Positions 536 to 44,996 of a stretch of 64,000 nucleotides of DNA are shown here, in pieces. Made by a program: the position numbers and the translations under genes. Source of the DNA: Bacteroidales bacterium (GTDB taxonomy: Bacteria > Bacteroidota > Bacteroidia > Bacteroidales > VadinHA17); NCBI GenBank assembly GCA_029974835.1, contig JARKQN010000039.1, positions 15,127-79,126 of the forward strand, written 5' to 3'. Positions within the stretch are counted from its first letter, which is position 1; every line of letters starts with the position of its first letter. The notes beneath the pieces are model-generated. The model did not search any database, was not told the origin of the DNA, and saw only the letters and a program-made list of their open reading frames with translations.

Positions 536-3500
536 TCAGAAATCAAGACTGAATGAGAGGTAGAACACCATCGGCAGGATATAGCCGTTCTCGATTCCCC
601 AGGCGAAGTCGCCCCTTACAAAATAGCCGAGCAGCTGTGCCCTGAGGCCTCCTCCCACGCCTGCCACTATTGGTTGCCTGTTGGTGTCGAGGTATACCGT
701 TACGGGTCCGTTTACAATAATATCACGGTCGTAGGAGTTCTCGCCCGACCACGGTGTTTTTCCCGACCATGCCGTTCCTACATCTCCGAATCCCACAACC
801 TGAAGACTGTTCAGGAAGTTTGACCTGAGGGGGTGGCCTGCGAAGTACCTGACGAAGGGCCATCTTATTTCACTGTTGATAAGGGCAAAGCTGTTGCCGT
901 TGCGTATGTTCTGGCTGAAGCCGCGCATATTTGTGGCCAGGGCCTGGAACCCGTAGTTATGATATGGGTTGACCCCCAGCGACTGGTCGAACATAGGGAT
1001 TTTATTGAAAATGTAACCCATCCAGTTATCCACTCCGCCGAGGTAATAAATGAGTTTTGTCGGTCCGTACGAAGTGCTTGCAGCAAATCTGTTGGCCCAG
1101 ATGAGCTCGCGGTGAATCCTGAGATAGTACCTGAAATCGGCTCCCAGAACGATCATATCAGATAACTTCCTGCTGATCTCCTTGTAGTATTCTCCGAAGA
1201 TTTTAAAACGGGTGCCGCTGTAAATGTTGATATTTAACTTCCTTGTATTATCGTAGATCAGTTCGCCCTTCAGACCAACCCAATGCCTTGAAATATCCCT
1301 TGAAGAGAGGGTCTGCACGTCGGTTGACAGGAAAACATATTTGTCGAACCTGTATGAGGTTGTTCCTTTCAGGGCGAGGACCGGCGAGAATGCTTTTGTG
1401 AGAGTCAGGTAGAGATTATCGCTGTGTATCTTGAAATATGCGGTGTCATTCGACGAGTTAAAGGTCATACGGTGGTATGTGATCTGTTTGTCGAACTTTC
1501 CCTTGAGATTCTCGAGGCTCAGAAGGTATTCGTTGCTGTCGAAGTTACCAGCGAACCTGAACCCGCCGGTGAGTTTATAATCCTCGAAAAGGTCGAGAAT
1601 TCCTATGCGTGTGAAAAGGTTGGCTCCGGGATTGAAGTAAGGAGCGCCTCCGTTATACGGCTGATATGAGTTATTGAGAAAATTGAAGTCGACCTGGCCG
1701 GCAAGATAGTTATTGTAGAATGACGTCTGGTAGATTCTGATCAGGGGAAGTTTGAGTGTATCTGTCCCGAGATCGATATTCATATAATCTTTTCTCCAGA
1801 GCTGTTCGTAATAATTCTGTTTCTCTTTTTCAAAGATGTAGTGGTTTATGTCAATAGGTTCGTCTTTCGCATAATACTCATACAGAGGTTTTTTCAGCGT
1901 ATCTCTTCTTTTCCTGTCCTCGACGAGGAGCCATTGTCTGAGTTGTTCGATGCTGTCGGCCTTATGCAGAAGCCTGGTCTGTTCTTTCCTGAACCGGGTT
2001 TGCGGAAGTTCCTGCCCTTTCACCCTCAGCGCCGGTTCAATTTTACCTTTTCTGGCATAGTTACGGCCTTTGCTGTAAATTATCTCCCCGTACGAATCAG
2101 AGTTGGCCGTAACGTCGTGATAGCTGATGTTCCGGTCATAGTCGGTGACAGGAAGTGAACTTATGAAATATCTGTAATGCGTGGTTGTGTCAATATAGCT
2201 TATAGTACTGTCGAATACAGCGGTATAACGGTTTATCACTCCGTTGCCGTTTCCGAGATAAGCAATCTCCCGTTTCCCGGTGCTAACCGGCTGGTACCTG
2301 TCTGTGTATCTGCCTTCGGTGAGGCGTGTAAGAAGGTTCCCGCGGTTCCGGATGTTGTAGGTGAAGAGGTCGAAGGTGAGACCTGTTCTTTCAAACGGGT
2401 CTGCCCTGTTTGTGAGGGTATCTCCGAGCCGGTTTGATGAGAAGATTATTTCATCGGGCGACCCCTTCAGGAAGGATGGATTAATGTCGTCGGCCGCATC
2501 CATGGTTATCTGTTCATTCGTTCCTGAAGCAATCGTGTGGAGATATAAGTCGGTGAATCCCTGCCTTACGCCTGATAGTATCAGCTGTGTGCCGTCGGGG
2601 GAATATGAGAAGTCAAGCACTTTGTCGAGGTAGAGGAAGAGCCTGCTTTCGGTGGTTCTCTCCGGCACCCTGTGGAAATATATTTTAAGAAGTGACTTTT
2701 CCTCGTTGATGAATGTCAGAATGTTGCTGTTTGGATGCCATGCTATTACAGGGTAGGTATTGTCGGTCTTGTGTTCGTACCTGGGTTCTGCCCTGAAAAC
2801 AATCCTTGTTTTACCGGTTTGCCGGTTATAGACCCATATCCGTTTTCTTCCCCAGTCGTTGGTAACCCATGCAATGTTTTTCTGGTCCGGACTGATCTTT
2901 ACCTGCTGAAATATCTGTTCTTTCTTTGAGCGTCTGAGCTTATCCTCGTTAAGCGGAGGATTCCCCTTGTCGGATGAGTATTCCTCCCTGTAATACTCCT
3001 GCCACTCTTTAAGCAGGCTGCTCAGCTTCTCTCCCGTGACATAAAGAAAGCCATCATTTATATTCTTGTAAATCTTTGTGAGATAAATGATTGAAGGTAT
3101 GAGAGCATCGCCGTACCTGTTCCCCAGGAATCTCCAGAAAGATTGTCCGGCATAAATTGCGTCCTCGTACTGAAGATGGTTGATGTTTTTGTATTTGCCG
3201 CTTCTGAAGCCGTCCTTCACCCTGTTTTCGGTTTCATAATCCCATCCGAAGGCCACATAGTTAACGAGGCCTTTCAGGTACCAGTCGGGAATATTAAACG
3301 ATTGCGAACTGTTTGTCCGGTCTTTCAGATCGGCACCCGCAATCATTTCATTGATTATTACTTCGGCAACGGATGAAGCTATTTGCTTTTCATAGGCAAC
3401 CCTTGTGCCCTCATAATAGAGCAGTACCTTGTTTTTTATAATCCTGCTGTAACCGCCAAGGTTGTAATCATCTTCCGAGAAGGTAACCAGGCCTGCATTT

Positions 3501-3817
3501 GATTGTTTATATTCTGCCTGTTTGTTGTAAATAATAAAGATTAGTCTTTTATCGAGTGAATAGTCAAAAAAGTTTTCTATCTCCTCCAGTTTTTTAATCC
3601 CGTAATCGGCGGTGAATTTAGCCAGTTCGCGGCCTTCCTCCTTGAAATAGCAGTCGATGTTTTCGAAACGGTAGAACGACCAGTAATAGTCGTAATACTG
3701 TACCCTGTTCTTGCCAAACGACATCTGAAGGCCGTTGTAAAACTGACCTTTGGAAGACAGAGTAAGAATTACTGCAATAAGTGTAGCCAGCAGCCTTCTG
3801 CCAGGGGCTTTGTGCAT
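536..3817 (-). CDS. Outer-membrane protein combining a TolB/PD40-like beta-propeller region with a C-terminal Omp85 (surface antigen D15) type beta-barrel
   Basis: ORF 536..3865. I prefer the ATG at 3817 (MHKAPGRRLLATLIAVILTLSS signal peptide) over the TTG at 3865. PD40-like repeats are present (ISPDQKNIAWVTNDWG, YSPDGTQLILSG). The C-terminus has Omp85-barrel-like segments (YYLGGVDNWMGY, RGFSQNIRNGNSFALINSEIRWPF, GDVGTAWSG) and ends in ..SFSLDF. Confidence 0.6.
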   Translation of the reverse strand: MHKAPGRRLLATLIAVILTLSSKGQFYNGLQMSFGKNRVQYYDYYWSFYRFENIDCYFKEEGRELAKFTADYGIKKLEEIENFFDYSLDKRLIFIIYNKQAEYKQSNAGLVTFSEDDYNLGGYSRIIKNKVLLYYEGTRVAYEKQIASSVAEVIINEMIAGADLKDRTNSSQSFNIPDWYLKGLVNYVAFGWDYETENRVKDGFRSGKYKNINHLQYEDAIYAGQSFWRFLGNRYGDALIPSIIYLTKIYKNINDGFLYVTGEKLSSLLKEWQEYYREEYSSDKGNPPLNEDKLRRSKKEQIFQQVKISPDQKNIAWVTNDWGRKRIWVYNRQTGKTRIVFRAEPRYEHKTDNTYPVIAWHPNSNILTFINEEKSLLKIYFHRVPERTTESRLFLYLDKVLDFSYSPDGTQLILSGVRQGFTDLYLHTIASGTNEQITMDAADDINPSFLKGSPDEIIFSSNRLGDTLTNRADPFERTGLTFDLFTYNIRNRGNLLTRLTEGRYTDRYQPVSTGKREIAYLGNGNGVINRYTAVFDSTISYIDTTTHYRYFISSLPVTDYDRNISYHDVTANSDSYGEIIYSKGRNYARKGKIEPALRVKGQELPQTRFRKEQTRLLHKADSIEQLRQWLLVEDRKRRDTLKKPLYEYYAKDEPIDINHYIFEKEKQNYYEQLWRKDYMNIDLGTDTLKLPLIRIYQTSFYNNYLAGQVDFNFLNNSYQPYNGGAPYFNPGANLFTRIGILDLFEDYKLTGGFRFAGNFDSNEYLLSLENLKGKFDKQITYHRMTFNSSNDTAYFKIHSDNLYLTLTKAFSPVLALKGTTSYRFDKYVFLSTDVQTLSSRDISRHWVGLKGELIYDNTRKLNINIYSGTRFKIFGEYYKEISRKLSDMIVLGADFRYYLRIHRELIWANRFAASTSYGPTKLIYYLGGVDNWMGYIFNKIPMFDQSLGVNPYHNYGFQALATNMRGFSQNIRNGNSFALINSEIRWPFVRYFAGHPLRSNFLNSLQVVGFGDVGTAWSGKTPWSGENSYDRDIIVNGPVTVYLDTNRQPIVAGVGGGLRAQLLGYFVRGDFAWGIENGYILPMVFYLSFSLDF

Positions 3818-3876
3818 CAGATTACCTGTATGTATTTGAGTCAAATGAAGCAAATTCTGTTCCAAAACGTCAAAGG

Positions 3877-3884
3877 CAAAGCTA
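3877..3884 (-). promoter_or_regulatory. -7 box TAgcTTTG for the Omp85-like gene
   Basis: The reverse complement of caaagcta is TAGCTTTG. It is 60 nt upstream of ATG 3817 but only 12 nt from the TTG at 3865, which supports the ATG start. Confidence 0.4.
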
Positions 3885-3926
3885 ATAATTATCCTGGTTT
3901 GATTTTAATTACATTGTAAAGTTTGT

Positions 3927-3934
3927 TAACTTTG
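3927..3934 (+). promoter_or_regulatory. -7 box TAacTTTG for the DUF1573-meaB-tlpA-like gene string
   Basis: TAACTTTG matches TAnnTTTG and lies 100 nt upstream of ATG 4035. Confidence 0.35.
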
Positions 3935-4034
3935 TTCGCCGGTTAAGGCCCGGAATTTGCAGTATAATCATGCAACAAAAAAAGGGTTTCAGCAGTTATA
4001 TTGATATAATGACAAATCAAAATATAATTCAGTT

Positions 4035-5108
4035 ATGAAAAGGTCTTTGGTATTTGTTTTTTTTGTATTCCTGGGTGCGGCTCTTTTAGCCCAGCCGAAG
4101 GTGCAGGTTTCAAAATATGAGCACGATTTTGGCACCTTCAGGGAGGAAGACGGAAGGCAGTCATTTAATTTTGAGGTTACCAATACAGGAAATGCACCGC
4201 TGGTGATACAGAACATAGTTGCCTCATGCGGCTGCACAACTCCGACCTGGACAAAAACACCCATCAGTCCCAACGGCAAGGGAGTGATTACTGCCGTATA
4301 TGATCCTGCAGGAAGGCCGGGGCCTTTTAATAAGACTCTTACTGTTTACACCAATGCCAAACCTGAGACTGTTGTGCTTGTCATTAAGGGTGAGGTAAAG
4401 GAAAGGGAGAGAACCATTGAGGAGATGTATACATGGCAGGTAGGGCAGGTGAGATTTGAAAGCAACCACCTGGCTTTCACAACCATTAAGAAGACCGAGA
4501 AAAAGATTAAGGTGATGCCTGTCATCAATACTTCAAAGGAAAACGTCAAAATCGAGTTTGATCCTACACCGGCTCATATCCAGCTGAAGGCCGTTCCGGA
4601 AGTGCTCAAACCCGGGCAGAAAGGGGTTATTGAAGGAACCTACGACGCCACAAAGAACGGAAACTACGGCACCGTAACAGATATTGCAAGAGTAAAACTA
4701 AACGGAGTTCCGCAGGAAAATATGTGGCTTTATGTTTCGGCCAACCTGACGGAGGATTTTTCACACCTTACCAGGGAGGAGCTTGCCAATGCACCGGTAT
4801 TTAAAATTGCTTCGGCCACTGTCGACCTTGGTGATATGAACCCGTCGACCACAAAGGATTTTGTTTTCACATTTACCAATGCCGGCAAGAGCGACCTTAT
4901 TATCAGAAATGTAAGGTCGACCTGCGGTTGCACTGCAATAAACCAGAGTTCCAATGTGATAAAGCCCGGGGAATCTGGTTCCATAAAAGCCAGTTTCAAT
5001 TCTGGCACATACAAGGGCAGGGTCACAAAAGCCATTTATGTATATACCAACGATCCGTCAAACTCGGAGGTTGTACTTATGCTTAATGCCAACGTGAAGG
5101 CACAATAG
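4035..5108 (+). CDS. DUF1573 domain protein (two tandem DUF1573 modules), secreted
   Basis: It has a signal peptide, [20 protein letters not shown]. There are two copies of the family pattern: F.F.N.G..PL.I with [12 protein letters not shown], and [24 protein letters not shown]. Confidence 0.8.
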
Positions 5109-7556: not shown

Positions 7557-8249
7557 TTAGCCCTGCGGGCTCTCATCTTCCTTTAATTCCTCAAGTATAA
7601 AACCTGTTCCCCTTACGGTGCGCAGGTCGATACCCTTGTCATCCGAAAGGTATTTCCTGAGCCGGCTGATGAACACATCCATGCTCCTGCCCAGAAAATA
7701 ATCATCCTCTCCCCATATCTCCGTGAGGATATCCTCACGCGTGAGGATTTTGTTTTTGTTAAGGATGAAATACCTAAGAAGCTGGGCCTCCTTAAGTGTC
7801 AGTTTCTCCTTGTTTTTGCCCGAGATAAGTTCAAGAGTGTTAAACCTTAGAACTGACTTTGAAATGTGGTATTCATCATTTACCGTCGAATAGGCTCTTT
7901 TCAGGATGTTGTTTATCCTGAGTATCAGGACTTCCGGGTCGAAGGGTTTGGTAATATAGTCATCGGCCCCGAGCCTTAGCCCCTTTACAATATCTTCCTT
8001 GAGGCTTCTTGCGGTGAGAAAAATAAACGGCATCTCGGGAACGGCCTGTTTGATTTTCCCGGCAAGGGTGAAGCCGTCCATTTCTGGCATCATTACATCG
8101 AGCACGCAAATATCGGGTCTTTCCCTGTTAAACTCTTCCCACGCCTCCTTCCCGTCGCGGGCCAGAGTTACGTCAAATCCGCTGATGGTGACATACTGGG
8201 CAAGAATATTCCCGAAATCCCTGTCATCCTCTGCTATAAGTACTCTCAT
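7557..8249 (-). CDS. OmpR-family response regulator (receiver plus winged-helix DNA-binding domain)
   Basis: Receiver motifs are MRVLIAEDD and DVMMPEMDG (phospho-acceptor Asp). KPF is present. The C-terminal trans_reg_C-like region reads LTLKEAQLLRYF...VFISRLRKYL...RTVRGTGF. Confidence 0.9.
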   Translation of the reverse strand: MRVLIAEDDRDFGNILAQYVTISGFDVTLARDGKEAWEEFNRERPDICVLDVMMPEMDGFTLAGKIKQAVPEMPFIFLTARSLKEDIVKGLRLGADDYITKPFDPEVLILRINNILKRAYSTVNDEYHISKSVLRFNTLELISGKNKEKLTLKEAQLLRYFILNKNKILTREDILTEIWGEDDYFLGRSMDVFISRLRKYLSDDKGIDLRTVRGTGFILEELKEDESPQG

Positions 8250-38834: not shown

Positions 38835-40085
38835 TTGGCTAACAGGAAATTTTTACCGGCACGAAGGCAGATAACCGGTCTGATGCTTTTGGTTTCCGTA
38901 ATTCTGCTTCATTCCTGCGGCAGGGAAGAGGAGAAGGGCTATGAGTATCTGATTTCGGCTGAAAAGGCGTTAAGTTATTCGCCCGTTTACATAGGTAATC
39001 TTGTTAACGCCGCTGCGGCCTATTACCCGGAGATTGACCAGATAAAGCCTCTCATTTCGGACGGTGTGGATGTTTATACTGTCATCTACAAAACAATGCT
39101 TGACGGAAAAGCCATCGAGGCTTCAGGGTTGATGTGTGTTCCCCAGGCGGCGGGAAAGTTCCCCGTGATATGTTTTCAGAACGGCACAAACACTGTGGAT
39201 GCTTATGCTCCGTCGAATTTTCCCCTGAACACACAATACCAGATGATCGAAATAATTGCCTCGATGGGCTATGTGGTTCTGATTCCTGATTACCCCGGTT
39301 TCGGGGCATCGGCCGGAAAGCCTCATCCTTACCTGATCAGGGAGCCGACCGTAAGGGCAGTGACTGATATGATCAGGGCGGCGAAAGAAGCCGGCGGCAA
39401 TCTGATAAAGGATATTGAGGCAGATAACCTTCTGGCATTTATTGGTTATTCACAGGGAGGATGGGCAACGATGGCTCTTCATAAGGCATTTGAAACTGAA
39501 TACGGCAATGAATTTGAACTGGCGGGAAGCGTATGCGGTGCAGGTCCTTACGATATCACTTACCTTTTCAGTTCGATGATAAACACTGATGTATATCCAA
39601 TGCCGGTTTACATTGGCTATATTGTCAACGCCTATTCATATTACAAACAGTTTACCAATCCTGTCACTGACATACTGAATGAGCCTTACGCCACCAGTCT
39701 TGCAGGCCTGTATAACGGTAAGCTTGATTTCAGCCAGATCAATGCACAGCTTACAACTTCGGTTCAGGCCCTTGTAAATTCATCCTTTCTGGCAGGTTTC
39801 AGCACAGATGCGCATTACGAGAGTGTTAGAAATGCAATGGTTTTAAACAGCATTGCCCCCTGGCACACCACCAAACCATTGTACCTGATTCATGGCGGAA
39901 ACGATACCCAGGTGAACCCGCAGGTTACGGAATATTTTTACAACCGTCTCATTGAGGCAGGCAGTTCACCTTCCACAGTGAAGAAGGAGATACTTCCCGG
40001 ACTTGATCATGGTGATGCCGCAGTACCGGCCATCGTTAAGGGTTTGGTTTTCATAAACGATCTGATGAAGGGTGCAGGGAAGTAA
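38835..40085 (+). CDS. Alpha/beta-hydrolase lipoprotein (lipase/esterase-like)
   Basis: Lipoprotein signal LLVSVILLHSC. Nucleophile elbow GYSQGGW, acid context HGGNDTQV, and His context LDHGD. Confidence 0.6.
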   Translation: MANRKFLPARRQITGLMLLVSVILLHSCGREEEKGYEYLISAEKALSYSPVYIGNLVNAAAAYYPEIDQIKPLISDGVDVYTVIYKTMLDGKAIEASGLMCVPQAAGKFPVICFQNGTNTVDAYAPSNFPLNTQYQMIEIIASMGYVVLIPDYPGFGASAGKPHPYLIREPTVRAVTDMIRAAKEAGGNLIKDIEADNLLAFIGYSQGGWATMALHKAFETEYGNEFELAGSVCGAGPYDITYLFSSMINTDVYPMPVYIGYIVNAYSYYKQFTNPVTDILNEPYATSLAGLYNGKLDFSQINAQLTTSVQALVNSSFLAGFSTDAHYESVRNAMVLNSIAPWHTTKPLYLIHGGNDTQVNPQVTEYFYNRLIEAGSSPSTVKKEILPGLDHGDAAVPAIVKGLVFINDLMKGAGK

Positions 40086-40101: not shown

Positions 40102-41508
40102 ATGAGTGAAATATCCAGATACCAGTTATTGGAGAAGATTGTGGTGGAAAGCATGAGCTCTGACGGCAGGGCCGTGGCACGATACGGCGACATGGTGATA
40201 TTCATTCCTTTTGCGGCACCCGGAGACATAATTGATCTTAAAGTAACATCAAGGCGGAAAAACTACCTGGAGGGCGTTATTGCCGGGTTTCATCATTATT
40301 CCGAAGACCGGACTGAACCGGTATGCCCTCATTTCGGAACCTGCGGAGGCTGCACGTGGCAGTATATGAAATATGAGAGGCAGCTCGCTTGCAAGCAGGA
40401 GATCATTGGAGATGTAATAAAAAGGATTGGAAAAATTGACGATGTACCTGTTTCCCCGATTCTTGAGTCGCCCGAACCGTATTATTACCGCAATAAGCTT
40501 GAATACACCTTTTCTTCAAACCGTTGGCTTTCTGAAGATGAGATAAACAGCGGATTGCCGGTGGATCGCACTCATGCCCTTGGCTTTCATAAACCGGGTT
40601 TCTTCGACCGTGTCATTGACATAAAGGAGTGTCACCTCCAGCCTGAGCCTACAAATGCCATCAGGAATGCTGTAAGAGATTACGCACTGAAAAAAAATCT
40701 TTCATTCTACAATATTAAAAACCATACCGGCTACCTGAGGAACCTTATTGTCAGGAACACAACCGACGGCCAGGCAATGGTTATTGTGGTATTCAGTTCT
40801 GATGAAAGGAAACAGGCTGCCGGCTTACTCGATTTTATAAAGAGCGGATTTCCGGCCGTAACATCCCTTTATTACGTGATAAACGGTAAGAAAAATGATT
40901 CAATTTCCGATCTTGCCCCGGTGCTCTGGTACGGGAATGAACACCTTGTCTCGGAAATAGACGGTTTCAGGTTCAGAGTAGGTCCAAATTCATTCTACCA
41001 GACCAACTCACGACAGGCGGCAAGACTTTATGAAACGATCAGGACACTTGCTTCTCTTTCCGGAAATGAGGTCGTTTATGACCTTTACACGGGCACAGGC
41101 ACCATAGCATGTTTTATCGCGGCAAAGGCAAAGAGAGTTATCGGGCTGGAATATGTTGGTGCAGCGGTTGAGGATGCAACTGCCAATGCAAAATCGAACG
41201 GGATTGAGAATGTAAGTTTCCATACCGGCGACATAAAACAACTCCTTGGAGAGGGCATGTTCAGGAAGGAAGGCAGCCCGGATGTGATCATTACCGATCC
41301 TCCCCGTTCGGGAATGCATGCGGATGTGACCGGCGAAATACTCGCTGCAGGACCTTCAAGGATTGTTTATGTCAGTTGTAACGCCTCAACCCAGGCCAGG
41401 GATATCAATATCCTTCATGAAAAGTATGAGGTGAAACATATCCGGCCTGTCGACATGTTTCCCCAGACCCCCCATATTGAAAATATAGTTCTTCTCACCC
41501 GCAGGTGA
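40102..41508 (+). CDS. rlmD: 23S rRNA (uracil-C5)-methyltransferase, RlmD/RumA type
   Basis: A TRAM-like N-terminus is present. Fe-S Cys cluster CPHFGTCGGCTWQ, SAM motif DLYTGTGT, and catalytic VSCN. I prefer the ATG at 40102; the track start at 40072 is a GTG overlapping the upstream gene. Confidence 0.85.
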   Translation: MSEISRYQLLEKIVVESMSSDGRAVARYGDMVIFIPFAAPGDIIDLKVTSRRKNYLEGVIAGFHHYSEDRTEPVCPHFGTCGGCTWQYMKYERQLACKQEIIGDVIKRIGKIDDVPVSPILESPEPYYYRNKLEYTFSSNRWLSEDEINSGLPVDRTHALGFHKPGFFDRVIDIKECHLQPEPTNAIRNAVRDYALKKNLSFYNIKNHTGYLRNLIVRNTTDGQAMVIVVFSSDERKQAAGLLDFIKSGFPAVTSLYYVINGKKNDSISDLAPVLWYGNEHLVSEIDGFRFRVGPNSFYQTNSRQAARLYETIRTLASLSGNEVVYDLYTGTGTIACFIAAKAKRVIGLEYVGAAVEDATANAKSNGIENVSFHTGDIKQLLGEGMFRKEGSPDVIITDPPRSGMHADVTGEILAAGPSRIVYVSCNASTQARDINILHEKYEVKHIRPVDMFPQTPHIENIVLLTRR

Positions 41509-41589
41509 AAGTAACCTGTTCTGATTCTGTAAAAATTACGGAATTACAGTTTTTTAAATTAATTTTATTTCTTTGTTTGCGGGAAGGAA

Positions 41590-42408
41590 ATGCACGGGGA
41601 AAGTACATACCAGTCGGAGATGCTTGCAAAGGCGGGCCTGCAGGCTTTTGACGAACACCTGTCGAGCCTCCGCTATGCAGGAATGATTCAGCATGCCCTC
41701 ATGCCTGATGAGGAAACACTTTCAGGCATCCTTAAAGATTATTTTATTCTTTTCCTTCCGCGGGATATCGTCAGCGGAGATTTTTATTATGCATTTTCCA
41801 ACCGCGAGTACCTTTGCGTGGCGGCAGGCGACTGCACGGGTCACGGCGTACCTGGAGCACTTCTCAGTATTCTTGGCATCAGTTTCCTTAACGAAATAAT
41901 GCAATCGGAGAAATGCATGAAAGCCAACCGGGTGCTGAACATGATGAGAGAAAGGGTAATGAAGGCGCTCCATCAGACCGGAGAGAAATCGGGCACAAAA
42001 GACAGCATTGACATAGCCCTTTGCATCGTAAGCCTCAAAACAGGTGAGATGCAGTATGCCGGAGCAAACAGACCGCTTGTAATGATAAGAAATGGTGAAC
42101 TGACAGAATATAAGCCCGACCTGATGACAATAGGGCTTGCCCCGGTAGAAGAACGTGCCTTTAAAAATAATTATATCGGTACCAGACCCGGAGATATGTT
42201 CTATCTTTTCTCCGACGGATTCCCCGACCAGTTCGGGGAGGAATCAAACAAAAAACTGAAAAACAAAAATTTCAGAAAAATTCTCGAAACCGCATCCTCT
42301 TTAACCATGATGAAGGACCAGAAGGCATTTCTTGAAAACAGTTTCTTTGAATGGCGGGGCAAAATGCCACAGGTGGATGATGTCCTTATTTTTGGATTTA
42401 AACTTTGA
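41590..42408 (+). CDS. Stand-alone PPM/PP2C-type (SpoIIE/RsbU-like) protein phosphatase catalytic domain
   Basis: Metal-binding motifs seen: IVSGDFYY, AAGDCTGHGVPGALL, LFSDGFPDQFG and a terminal QVDDVLIFGF. It is 272 aa with no TM or recognisable sensor domain. Confidence 0.85.
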   Translation: MHGESTYQSEMLAKAGLQAFDEHLSSLRYAGMIQHALMPDEETLSGILKDYFILFLPRDIVSGDFYYAFSNREYLCVAAGDCTGHGVPGALLSILGISFLNEIMQSEKCMKANRVLNMMRERVMKALHQTGEKSGTKDSIDIALCIVSLKTGEMQYAGANRPLVMIRNGELTEYKPDLMTIGLAPVEERAFKNNYIGTRPGDMFYLFSDGFPDQFGEESNKKLKNKNFRKILETASSLTMMKDQKAFLENSFFEWRGKMPQVDDVLIFGFKL

Positions 42409-42411
42409 GTT

Positions 42412-44694
42412 ATGTACATGAAACTTTGCGCCTTCAGGATCAGAAATTTCAGATCGATAACCGATACCGGCTGGCAGAATCTGTCGCCCGACAATATCAC
42501 CTGCCTGATAGGACAGAATGAGTCAGGCAAAACATCCATCCTTGAAGGGCTAAGATCATTCTATACCGGCTCAATTTCAGAAGATGTTCTGAGAAGCGAC
42601 CTCACCCTGCCGGAAATTTCCTGCCGTTTTAATGTGAACAACGGATGGCTCTCGGATGTGACGGAAAACCCCGGCTCGGAACTGAAAGAACTTCTGTCGG
42701 AACTCACCACCGTGGAACTGACCAGAAACTGGCTGCCCGATTTCTCCTCAACAATAAAAGTCAGCGGAAGGATAAGTGAATACCTCGATTCCCTCGAAAA
42801 TGCCTGGGGACTCTATCTTAATGAGGTGAAAGCCAAACTGGAAAAGGAGATTGAGGAAATTAACCGGCTCAAATCAAGACTTGACGAAATAATGTCCCTG
42901 AAGGCTGATATTATAATGAGGGCAAATCCCGCTGCAGGCAAAGGAATGGTGGGGCGCCTGTTCAGGAAGTCGGAGGGAGGTCTGGTTGAAAGATTGCCGG
43001 CCGATCAGAAGCATAAATTCAACGACCTGGTTAAGGAAGAGGAGTCAGTCAGAAAAACCCTGGCCGGAAAAAAGGAGATTGCCGATGCAGGGTTAAAGTA
43101 TGGTGCCCTGCTCGCCGGTCTTGAGGAGACAGACAGAAAGCTGGATGACCTTGAATCGAAGCTTGAAGAGTATCACCAGAAAATGACCCTTCTGCTGATG
43201 CCGATGGATAAGACTGAAGATCCGGAATGGACCAAAGTGCTGGAAGATTTCCGGAATAACAGGATGGCAAAGGAGAAGCTTAAATCAGACATGGAAGCAC
43301 ACATTGCCTTCAGCGGCTATCTGATGGAAGGGAGAAGCCCCGAAGAATCGCAGATGCTTACCCTTGAGGCGATGCGCAGGTACAAGTCGCAGTACACAAG
43401 CGAAATGCTCGGCAGGAAGTACTTTGAGTATTGTCCTGATATTGAAATGTTTGAAGATTTCGGAAGCCTGCTGCCCAACAGGATTGACCTTGAAGATATT
43501 ATTACAGGGAACGAAAACGTTGAAGGATACAAGGCAGCAAGAAATTTTCTTACACTGGCAAAACTTGATTATTCATTCTTTCAGCAGCCGTCGAGCAGAA
43601 TACTGAAACAAAAGATTGAAAACCTGAACAATACACTTACCGTTAATTTCCAGGATTTCTGGCAGCAGTCGATCGGCCGCAACAACAAGATAAAGATTCA
43701 GTTTGAGCTTGACCACTACAGCCTTAATTACAGTGACAAGGCCGGCAAGCCTTACCTTGAATTCTGGGTGAAAGACTCGGGGGAGAGACTGTATCCCAAA
43801 CAGAGAAGCAGGGGAGTGAGATGGTTCCTTTCATTTTACATGGAGCTGAAGGCATCGGCAATGCGGAGTACAAAGCCAATGGTACTTCTTGTTGATGAGC
43901 CGGGAATTAGTCTGCATGCAAGAGCGCAGGAAGATGTGCTGAAAGTTTTTGAAGACATTAAGGACAGGATACAGATTATTTATACAACTCATTCGCCGCA
44001 TCTCGTTGATGTTAACAAGATGCACCGTATTCTCGCAGTGCAGCGAGACGATCTGGACAACCTGAAGAGTACAACAAGGGTTCTTGATCCCCTGAAACTT
44101 GCATCGGCTTCGCCTGACACTCTTACGCCACTGCAGAATATAATGGGCAATCCGCTCCCCTCTGAAGGCTTTTCGGCAAACCGTCTTAACCTGATTGTAA
44201 ACGACACCGGTACATTTTATCTGATTTCCTGTATTATCCAGGTTACAGGCTTTAAAGGGAAAATAAGTATTATACCCTCCACCGACGTTTCTTCAATACC
44301 GCTCATGTGCAATATTATGATGGGCTGGGGTTTAAAATTTGCCGTTCTCCTGTTCGGCAATGAAAGGGAAAGAAAGCTGGAGGAGTATCTTAAGGAGAAT
44401 ATGTTCAGGCCCGGGGATAAGGAGGGTGATTATCTGATTGTTACCGATCCAAGGTTCCTCAATGCGGAGGATTTGTTGTCGACGCTCGATTTCAAGAATC
44501 ATGTGCTTAAAACAAGGGAAGGAATTACAGTGCCCAATTCTGTCTATATGGAAGAGAAGGAACTGCCGAGAAGTTTTCTCCTAAGCAGGCTGCTGGGCGA
44601 TGTAAGGCAGGGACGGATAGAGCCTGGCGATTTTGACGAGGAGACGCACGAGAATTTCCGGTACCTGGTTGAGCTGCTTAAGGGTTTTAAATGA
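42412..44694 (+). CDS. OLD/SMC-like ABC-type ATPase with long coiled-coil insert and degenerate Toprim-like C-terminal domain
   Basis: Walker A is GQNESGKTS (aa 34-42). A charged heptad-rich region spans aa 125-330. A signature-like QRSRGVRWFLSF (aa 464-475), Walker B VLLVDEPG (491-498) and H-loop TTHSPH follow. A C-terminal domain of about 170 aa contains LNLIVNDTG and FAVLLFGNE. The ATG is 3 nt after the phosphatase stop. Confidence 0.7.
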   Translation: MYMKLCAFRIRNFRSITDTGWQNLSPDNITCLIGQNESGKTSILEGLRSFYTGSISEDVLRSDLTLPEISCRFNVNNGWLSDVTENPGSELKELLSELTTVELTRNWLPDFSSTIKVSGRISEYLDSLENAWGLYLNEVKAKLEKEIEEINRLKSRLDEIMSLKADIIMRANPAAGKGMVGRLFRKSEGGLVERLPADQKHKFNDLVKEEESVRKTLAGKKEIADAGLKYGALLAGLEETDRKLDDLESKLEEYHQKMTLLLMPMDKTEDPEWTKVLEDFRNNRMAKEKLKSDMEAHIAFSGYLMEGRSPEESQMLTLEAMRRYKSQYTSEMLGRKYFEYCPDIEMFEDFGSLLPNRIDLEDIITGNENVEGYKAARNFLTLAKLDYSFFQQPSSRILKQKIENLNNTLTVNFQDFWQQSIGRNNKIKIQFELDHYSLNYSDKAGKPYLEFWVKDSGERLYPKQRSRGVRWFLSFYMELKASAMRSTKPMVLLVDEPGISLHARAQEDVLKVFEDIKDRIQIIYTTHSPHLVDVNKMHRILAVQRDDLDNLKSTTRVLDPLKLASASPDTLTPLQNIMGNPLPSEGFSANRLNLIVNDTGTFYLISCIIQVTGFKGKISIIPSTDVSSIPLMCNIMMGWGLKFAVLLFGNERERKLEEYLKENMFRPGDKEGDYLIVTDPRFLNAEDLLSTLDFKNHVLKTREGITVPNSVYMEEKELPRSFLLSRLLGDVRQGRIEPGDFDEETHENFRYLVELLKGFK

Positions 44695-44757: not shown

Positions 44758-44845
<88 letters not shown>

Positions 44846-44893: not shown

Positions 44894-44924
44894 CTGCCCT
44901 GCCGGACCCCTTTTCACCTCAACC

Positions 44925-44996
44925 CACTCTCACTCTCACTCTCACACTCACTCTCACACTCACACTCACACTCACTCTCACACTCACTCTCACACC
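44925..44996. repeat. G-free hexamer microsatellite (CACWCT)x12
   Basis: Twelve consecutive units (cactct x3, cacact, cactct, cacact x3, cactct, cacact, cactct, cacacc). There is no G on the + strand for more than 70 nt. The same motif occurs at 28595-28624. Confidence 0.9.

Follow-up and report, generated by a model that had tools for sequence, protein, structure and literature searches.

We describe a pair of adjacent genes in a 64,000-nucleotide stretch of DNA from a Bacteroidales bacterium of the VadinHA17 lineage (contig JARKQN010000039.1, positions 15,127 to 79,126 of the forward strand; hereafter the window). Both genes lie on the plus strand. The first encodes a PP2C phosphatase of 272 amino acids (gene 1, 41590..42408, with its TGA stop at 42406-42408), and the second an ATPase of 760 amino acids that derives from the OLD family of nucleases (gene 2, 42412..44694, starting with ATG at 42412). 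We propose that the OLD-derived ATPase uses ATP to serve a bare phosphatase of the RsbU/SiaA type as its sensing or regulatory subunit, and that the output of the pair would be protein dephosphorylation rather than DNA cleavage; we regard this proposal as evenly balanced. The locus defines a further partner-defined class of OLD proteins, the PP2C-linked class, which is apparently domesticated and is widespread in uncultured Bacteroidales.

OLD proteins have been classified by partner into Class 1 (no partner), Class 2 (GajB), Class 3 (retron-linked), and Class 4 (split AriA/AriB) (PMC10568477). All four have been linked to phage defence. A study from 2025 extended the family by 11 uncharacterised clades and by a vertically inherited archaeal class with a cell-cycle role, Cran1 (PMC12796447), a recently described housekeeping class. 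We found no description of a PP2C partner for an OLD-family ATPase in the literature searched on the OLD family, ABC-ATPase/Toprim proteins, and anti-phage systems. One preprint reports a PP2C in a different, unrelated candidate system, and the PADLOC models from that work do not match the PP2C of the window.

Gene 1 is a phosphatase catalytic domain alone

The only domain detected in gene 1 is Pfam SpoIIE (PF07228), which spans residues 73-268 (E 2.6e-16; the score of 60.6 bits exceeds the cut-off of 25). Within NCBIfam, the top-scoring model is SiaA, through its phosphatase domain (profile positions 413-657 of 658, E 1.6e-44). Against the full-length SiaA model the protein scores 152 bits where the cut-off is 700, and the likeness to SiaA is therefore confined to the catalytic domain. 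The phosphatase site is intact. Its catalytic motifs are SGD64 (D64 at nt 41779), D81-CTG-H85-G86 (nt 41830-41847), SD209-G210 (nt 42214-42219), and D263-D264 (nt 42376-42381), and the metal motifs D64, D81, G84-H85-G86, D209-G210, and D263-D264 are conserved at a level of at least 97% in 133 orthologues. The first ~25 residues are variable. No PADLOC family matches the protein at E <= 0.1. Judged by these motifs, gene 1 is a catalytically intact PP2C of the SiaA/RsbU type that consists of the catalytic domain only.

Gene 2 is an OLD-family ATPase with a coiled-coil insert

Gene 2 matches the Pfam families AAA_15 (E 7e-27), AAA_21, AAA_23, and SMC_N, and Pfam detects no Toprim domain in it. 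PADLOC and NCBIfam matches are limited to the generic ABC-ATPase parts of AriA, Old, PtuA, GajA, and retron effectors. Among 1.84 billion cluster representatives, 4700 relatives were found at E <= 0.001 and 392 at E <= 1e-30, and the C-terminal domain is common to all of the full-length ones. A profile built from 55 sequences of the family finds the OLD protein of Thermus scotoductus (Ts OLD, 6p74) with an E-value of 6.3e-20, in an alignment that runs from Walker B over both Toprim motifs, and a distant member of the family (P0264) passes the Pfam model OLD-like_TOPRIM.

An AlphaFold2 (AF2) model of gene 2, built from the diverse 55-sequence alignment, reached a mean predicted local distance difference test score (pLDDT) of 90.9 and a predicted TM-score (pTM) of 0.80. 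It replaced an earlier model from 30 close orthologues, which had an ATPase core with a pLDDT of 68 and gave weak Foldseek matches. The model comprises an ABC head, a helical coiled-coil insert (residues 120-338), a Toprim fold (residues 591-680), and a helical tail. In Foldseek, GajA (8u7i) and Ts OLD (6p74) match at E ~3-5e-10 over 820-848 columns, which are among the longest alignments listed; SMC-head matches are shorter (~570-635 columns), and PtuA matches are intermediate (~600-730). The TM-scores against GajA and Ts OLD are low (0.27-0.38) because the domains are arranged differently.

The ATPase motifs are complete. Walker A (P-loop) reads G34-QNESGK40TS-42 (42511..42537). The region 43798..43998 holds the signature-like motif KQRS466RG468VRW, Walker B (LLVD495E496PG), the D-loop residue H502, and the H-loop (TH527SP). 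Walker A, Walker B, and the H-loop are invariant in the family. In the profile alignment, H502 aligns with H283 of Ts OLD and H527 with H310, two residues whose functional roles have been described (PMC7049728). The coiled-coil insert (42769..43425, ~220 aa) separates the two halves of the ABC head and is formed by helices at 120-171, 197-261, 271-305, and 310-338. Its modelled confidence is high in most parts (pLDDT ~90-97) and lower in the loops at 171-190 (59-66) and 261-270 (73). The insert is missing in relatives of ~590 aa. The C-terminal helical region (residues 681-760; 44452..44691), defined by alignment and AF2, contains the conserved residues E686-D687 and D693 and a clade-specific R702-x-G704.

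By homology and modelled fold, gene 2 is thus an OLD-family ATPase composed of a split ABC head, a coiled-coil insert, and a Toprim domain that appears structurally retained and catalytically degenerate. Of the features that define the OLD family, the ABC ATPase, the two-domain homology, and the Toprim fold are present and the catalytic Toprim residues are absent; the protein is a member by homology that lacks the catalytic residues. The alignments place its descent among Class-1-like OLD nucleases, with the complete apparatus for ATP binding and hydrolysis kept.

Much of this anatomy had been anticipated by a sequence-only reading of the window. Its bare PPM/SpoIIE domain with intact metal motifs corresponds to PF07228 as the sole domain, with the motifs in place. 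The heptad-rich insert that it placed at nt 42784-43401 coincides with the modelled helices of residues 120-338, and its OLD-like ATPase with a split ABC head, coiled coil, and Toprim-type tail is borne out by the 6p74 profile match, AF2, and Foldseek. What it overlooked is the loss of the metal-A ligands from the Toprim tail.

The Toprim domain has lost its metal-A ligands

The Toprim-fold domain of gene 2 occupies residues 591-680 (44182..44451). The AF2 model, a column comparison with 115 aligned representatives, and the 6p74 alignment place N597 (nt 44200), F648 (nt 44353), and N650 (nt 44359) in the columns of E377, D431, and D433 of Ts OLD. These three residues are the metal-A ligands of Ts OLD, and their triple mutation lowers cleavage 12-15 fold (PMC7049728). 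The canonical Toprim motifs (L/V)E(E/G)xS and DDD/DxD..G are found in the family at large, and the corresponding positions of the window protein read IVN597D and LLF648-G-N650. The fold itself is modelled with a beta-alpha-beta-alpha-beta-alpha topology (beta1 592-596, beta2 618-622, beta3 643-647, beta4 675-677), and the substituted residues sit at the ends of beta1 and beta3. Block-mean pLDDT values are 86-96 over residues 591-660 and 74-78 over residues 661-680, which include beta4. Since the metal-A site is lost, gene 2 very probably no longer cuts DNA efficiently.

The DxD motif is lost in all aligned loci of the window's clade and in representatives P0091, P0121-P0132, and P0136; it cannot be read in P0134 and P0137, whose sequences end before or within the Toprim domain. 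Its replacements in the PP2C-linked clade are varied and differ by subclade (FGN, GGN, EGD, NDT, GNS, GNH, LGE, MGI, MDN, FDN, FDT, and TDN), a pattern that would be expected from relaxed constraint on the nuclease site after the PP2C was acquired. Outgroup ATPases keep E...DDD. Mean column identity among orthologues is 0.71 in the Toprim-like domain, compared with 0.85-0.90 in the ATPase lobes and 0.60 in the coiled coil, the least conserved part. At this level of identity the Toprim-like domain is still being maintained, and it probably keeps a structural or binding role.

The two genes stay together in changing contexts

We compared the pair across two sets of related loci. The first consists of 80 loci from GTDB species genomes (L001-L080), all of them from metagenome-assembled genomes (MAGs) labelled Bacteroidales or Rikenellaceae, with ATPase identities to the window of 53-75%. 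A metagenome scan with the diverse alignment gave 80 further loci. A PP2C homologue lies directly upstream of the ATPase in all 77 genome loci that have upstream DNA and in 68 of the 70 assessable metagenome loci of the clade, whose ATPases are 35-42% identical to that of the window. The combined figure is 145 of 147 assessable related loci, in keeping with the two-gene unit that the sequence-only reading had proposed. The spacer between them in the window's clade is mostly 2-15 nt, and three apparent overlaps depend on automatic start-codon choice.

Adjacency of this kind could also arise if the genes had independent functions and were neighbours by inherited synteny alone. Genome loci of the window's clade share the entire order abcF / hydrolase / rlmD / PP2C / ATPase / tRNA-Ser, and because this whole block is syntenic, adjacency within that clade alone is no proof of a functional link. 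Outside it the block dissolves and the pair persists. None of the window's neighbour genes surround the metagenome loci with 35-42% identity, where the pair is found in at least five further unrelated contexts, and the junction is tight in most loci. In total, the pair occurs in at least six gene contexts: RlmD/tRNA-Ser; OmpA with a 656-aa protein; PurB (adenylosuccinate lyase); a DnaQ-GIY-YIG exonuclease; thioredoxin with SSB; and an ankyrin protein with a sensor-PP2C and a glutamine amidotransferase. Isopropylmalate dehydrogenase marks another context in the metagenome loci. Outgroup ATPases have no PP2C, and the PP2C has been lost in only 2 of the 147 assessable loci. These observations disfavour shared synteny as the whole explanation, and we consider it very improbable.

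Retention of the pair through repeated rearrangement is strong evidence that the PP2C and the ATPase are functionally coupled, as judged from the compared sequences. Divergence of the two proteins is also correlated: across loci, the identities of PP2C and ATPase to their counterparts in the window correlate at r = 0.74, compared with 0.30-0.62 for comparisons with neighbouring genes.

L089 and L124 are the sole members of the PP2C-linked clade in which no PP2C directly precedes the ATPase. In L124 a GlpD-like FAD oxidoreductase takes the place of the PP2C and the Toprim site is fully degenerate; in L089 the DDD motif is kept. The conserved tRNA-Ser was considered as a possible part of the system and rejected, as it is kept only inside the window's synteny block. 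A tRNA-Ser also lies near the 3' end of the ATPase gene in other clades (L092:7555, L094:5818, L097:4460, and L130:8616), with the anticodon TGA or GGA and sometimes on the opposite strand, and this may be due to chance.

The pair is inherited like a core gene

Calculated over the same loci, identity to the window averages 63.0% for the ATPase, 63.5% for the PP2C, 64.4% for ABC-F, and 54.3% for RlmD. The pair is single and syntenic. On four long contigs, including the 2.9-Mb chromosome-scale CP070687.1 and a 6.2-Mb metagenomic contig, only housekeeping neighbours lie within 10 kb. No defence genes were found near the pair, and every context examined was a housekeeping one. Neither the 2.9 million viral contigs searched nor phage records contain the long PP2C-linked form; tblastn against the latter returned one partial match with 23% coverage. 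The PP2C-linked class is abundant: considerably more than a thousand distinct protein clusters from environmental Bacteroidales belong to it, and no cultured organism appears among the named matches. The G+C content of the pair (0.456-0.475) is close to that of its flanks (0.43-0.48), which upholds the earlier view of a native composition; together with the synteny it shows that the locus is not a recent insertion. By these comparisons, the pair forms a two-gene operon on the chromosomes of environmental Bacteroidales, with vertical, core-like inheritance.

Many of the MAG contigs among L001-L080 end 50-700 bp past the ATPase, at or just beyond tRNA-Ser(GCT). Synteny with the window likewise stops past this tRNA, and downstream genes are shared only with L001, L002, and L160. 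Both observations suggest that the region beyond tRNA-Ser(GCT) is either variable or a point where assemblies break.

Relatives of the ATPase outline the origin of the class. Short relatives (~590 aa) with an intact Toprim domain have no PP2C. Two of them (L096, 161-6457; L102, 742-4451) lie between N6/N4 DNA methylases, a BsaWI-like endonuclease, and an AIPR abortive-infection protein, which is a typical defence island. Other short relatives are carried by Bacillus, Streptomyces, and Lactococcus plasmids and by six viral contigs; plasmid records contain distant short OLD relatives only. An intermediate form, represented by L081 and P0133, has the long coiled coil and an intact Toprim domain and also lacks a PP2C; the context of L081 is M16 peptidases and NADH dehydrogenase. 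In a crude neighbour-joining tree without support values, all PP2C-linked proteins form one clade that is sister to the L081/P0133 form. The class displays a clear evolutionary path from a nuclease of restriction-modification islands to a chromosomal coiled-coil form, then to a phosphatase-linked form, and finally to a nuclease-dead form.

These roots bear on whether the pair still acts in defence. It could be an anti-phage or anti-plasmid system fixed in the core genome, in which the ATPase would sense the invader and the PP2C would act as effector or switch; infection might, for instance, be aborted through dephosphorylation of host or phage proteins. The defence origin of the family (its short intact-Toprim relatives in restriction-modification and abortive-infection islands, on plasmids, and on six viral contigs) is compatible with such a role, as are the matches of the ATPase to the PADLOC ATPase models of AriA, Old, PtuA, and GajA and the intact Toprim site of some PP2C-linked members. 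The PP2C, by contrast, has no PADLOC match, and no defence island occurs among the contexts examined, all of which are housekeeping. Defence genes are typically patchy, whereas the pair is single, syntenic, and conserved like ABC-F. Its long form is missing from the viral contigs and phage records, and its nuclease site is decaying. We therefore consider a defence function unlikely. Were the pair nevertheless to defend its host, it would be the first OLD system with a phosphatase in place of a nuclease as effector.

The same observations (vertical inheritance, housekeeping contexts, ABC-F-like conservation, absence from viral contigs and phage records, and a degenerate nuclease site) tell against the defence-type module that the sequence-only reading had preferred. 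That reading had named a housekeeping SMC/RecF/RecN-type family with a conserved non-defence context as an outcome that would contradict it. A conserved non-defence context is what we found, and the family is OLD rather than SMC/RecF/RecN. Its other option, an ATPase-gated phospho-signalling module, fits the evidence better than the defence option, with the gating itself being the part that we infer.

The housekeeping context and the degenerate nuclease site together point to an immune-type ATPase re-used for phosphatase control rather than to mobile defence. Cran1, a vertically inherited OLD class with a non-defence role, provides a precedent (PMC12796447). More tentatively, and with some doubt, we suggest that an immune-type OLD ATPase was domesticated across a bacterial order as the ATP-driven sensor of a phospho-signalling switch; the nuclease would have become dispensable once the PP2C was gained and would have decayed repeatedly, leaving the phosphatase as the sole catalytic output. 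If so, the locus would represent a bacterial parallel to archaeal Cran1 and the first PP2C module gated by an ABC ATPase. The pair would then offer a tractable case of an immune sensor re-used for cell regulation, and both of its genes are small enough for direct testing.

A possible route of phosphatase control

In the mechanism that we propose, the ATPase would supply the regulatory or sensing partner that the bare phosphatase lacks. ATP-dependent engagement of the heads, perhaps triggered by a ligand such as a nucleic acid or a protein, would activate or silence the phosphatase. Its target would be a phospho-Ser/Thr switch protein of the SiaC or STAS type, encoded at another site in the genome and dephosphorylated as the output of the system. 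Formation of a complex, the direction of control, the ligand, and the substrate are all predicted elements of this scheme, which would point to a novel control route for RsbU/SiaA-type phosphatases without a sensor domain of their own.

One subclade provides clues to the signalling pathway. In eight loci (L095, L099, L105, L109, L114, and L116-L118), a 1115-aa sensor phosphatase with Reg_prop, Y_Y_Y, and SpoIIE domains overlaps the start of the bare PP2C, and a gene for a SiaC-family phosphoprotein (PF09345, E 6e-31) lies within ~1 kb of the pair on the opposite strand. In L095, the sensor phosphatase gene is at 846-4193 and the SiaC-family gene at 7829-8203, downstream, on the opposite strand, and beside tsaD. 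The PP2C of this locus matches the NCBIfam SiaA phosphatase domain at E 7.5e-55. In Pseudomonas, SiaC is dephosphorylated by SiaA (PMC7647112). A SiaC gene near the pair, combined with the role of SiaC as a SiaA substrate, suggests by analogy that the substrates of these phosphatases may be SiaC- or STAS-type switch proteins. NCBIfam does not identify the 146-aa product of the upstream gene in this subclade as a SiaB kinase.

Two loci of the PurB-context subclade carry a second phosphatase of ~790 aa (TPR repeats and SpoIIE) just downstream of the ATPase and convergent with it (L092:7702-10074 and L097:4810-7158, both on the minus strand).

Several points weigh against ATPase control of a signalling phosphatase. 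The SiaC neighbour is restricted to one subclade, which amounts to a single evolutionary event; SiaC homologues are absent from the window and, among L001-L162, from all loci outside the eight. The SiaC gene may instead belong to the separate sensor-PP2C of that subclade. Genes for a kinase, SiaC, or STAS protein are missing from the 64-kb window and from most loci, and the pathway as seen is incomplete. One PP2C-linked subclade (L082-84, 86, 88, 135, and 159) keeps the full Toprim site with E and DDD, and loss of the nuclease was therefore not a condition of pairing. Residual nicking by way of the metal-B site (E686/D687, D598) is also conceivable in the window protein. The phylogeny rests on the crude tree described above, and physical interaction of the PP2C with the ATPase is itself a predicted element.

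Relation to known systems

PADLOC gave no system-level match for the pair, no match at E <= 0.1 for the PP2C, and only generic ABC-ATPase models for the ATPase. This agrees with the sequence-only reading, which knew of no such system that joins the ATPase to a PP2C, and the pairing is undescribed in the literature searched. The pair belongs to none of the Gabija, PARIS, Septu, and SiaABCD systems.

Among the closest known systems are the Class 1 OLD proteins (Ts OLD 6p74, phage P2 Old, and Vibrio cholerae OLD), with which gene 2 shares the D-loop and H-loop histidines, the profile match (E 6e-20 when rounded), and a long Foldseek alignment. It differs from them in having N597/F648/N650 in place of E377/D431/D433 and a coiled coil of ~220 aa as its insert. 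A QRSRG signature-like motif is invariant in the window's family, whereas Class 1 was reported to lack a signature (PMC7049728). The window type also has an obligatory upstream PP2C and core-like inheritance, in contrast to Class 1, which is phage-borne or patchy. Cran1 (Sulfolobales clade U11), set beside the pair here by its description, is likewise an OLD-family protein inherited vertically within one order with an apparent non-defence cellular role (PMC12796447). Unlike the window pair, it is archaeal, is an active nickase, and has no phosphatase partner.

Gabija, PARIS, and Septu or retron PtuA/PtuB resemble the pair in linking an ABC ATPase of the same superfamily tightly to a partner gene, and their PADLOC ATPase models match gene 2. 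The partner here is a PP2C rather than a UvrD-like helicase, a Toprim/DUF4435 nuclease, or an HNH nuclease, and the context is no defence island. For Gabija, GajB is missing: downstream of the ATPase is a tRNA-Ser followed by an opposite-strand FadL-like gene. For PARIS, the best PADLOC AriA match is to a generic AAA_15-type head, the Toprim domain is fused, and there is no AriB-like neighbour. For Septu and the retron Ec78 PtuAB system, the PtuA matches cover ATPase motifs only, and no HNH or reverse-transcriptase gene is adjacent.

On the phosphatase side, the pair resembles SiaABCD and RsbU/RsbT in its SpoIIE/RsbU/SiaA-type PP2C domain and, in one subclade, in the SiaC-family gene beside it. 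The window PP2C differs in having no HAMP, membrane, or N-terminal regulatory domain, and the window contains no SiaB/RsbW-type kinase, SiaC/STAS substrate, or SiaD. By analogy with RsbU, the window PP2C would depend on a separate protein for its activation. To our knowledge, an ABC ATPase has not been described before as a regulator of the SiaA/RsbU phosphatase family.

The order of the two genes recalls SbcD-SbcC and Mre11-Rad50, in which a metallo-phosphoesterase gene is followed by the gene for a coiled-coil ABC ATPase. The likeness is in the phosphoesterase-then-ATPase order and the tight junction, and we use it as an analogy only. The PP2C fold is unrelated to the calcineurin-like fold of Mre11, the coiled coil of the window protein is much shorter, and there is no sign of nuclease activity. 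The pair could nonetheless be a chromosome or DNA-maintenance factor like Cran1 or these complexes, with the PP2C either processing a nucleic-acid or protein-DNA substrate or regulating the ATPase by dephosphorylation. An SMC/Rad50-like head with a coiled coil, core-like inheritance, the Cran1 precedent, and the sbcD-sbcC-like gene order and junction would all suit such a factor, and the ATPase of Ts OLD is stimulated by DNA (PMC7049728). The window PP2C is, however, closest to signalling phosphatases of the SiaA type, and its ATPase partner has lost the site for cutting DNA. Consistent linkage of the pair to DNA-repair genes is not seen; RecA, at 30.7 kb, occurs only in the synteny of the window itself. 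PP2C/SpoIIE enzymes are known only as protein Ser/Thr phosphatases, which also counts against a role in DNA maintenance, and we judge this role improbable.

Further features of the locus

The stop codon of gene 1 and the start codon of gene 2 are separated by the 3-nt spacer GTT (42409..42411, plus strand), and the two open reading frames (ORFs) share one reading frame, so that the junction reads TGA GTT ATG. The upstream ORF ends at 41508 and is RlmD-like, with TRAM and U5-methyltransferase domains. Between it and gene 1 is an A+T-rich intergenic gap of 81 bp (41509..41589, plus strand), the presumed promoter region of the pair. In a scan for sigma-70 promoters and terminators, a tool that does not cover Bacteroidetes-type promoters, sites were no commoner than in shuffled sequence. 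The sole tRNA in the window, tRNA-Ser(GCT), was located by ARAGORN at 44758-44845, 63 bp past the ATPase stop. The gene coordinates, spacer, gap, and tRNA distance given by the sequence-only reading are all accurate when checked against the ORF list, the sequence, and ARAGORN.

One side of the pair in the window holds genes for RecA, a TPR protein, a SpoU methylase, a GWxTD protein, an acyl-ACP thioesterase, ABC-F, an alpha/beta hydrolase, and RlmD; the other side holds a FadL-like protein (opposite strand), GH106, and a sulfatase. A scan of 10 genes around the pair, between 30.7 and 51.6 kb of the window, detected no kinase, STAS, receiver, or sensor domain, as the sequence-only reading had stated, and no GGDEF domain. 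Read from its first GTG, the RlmD-like ORF shares 14 nt (40072-40085) with the end of the alpha/beta-hydrolase ORF, and its true start may be further downstream. An imperfect (TCACTC/TCACAC)n microsatellite with ~7 copies of the 12-mer lies at 44914-44995, between tRNA-Ser(GCT) and the terminator of the FadL-like gene.

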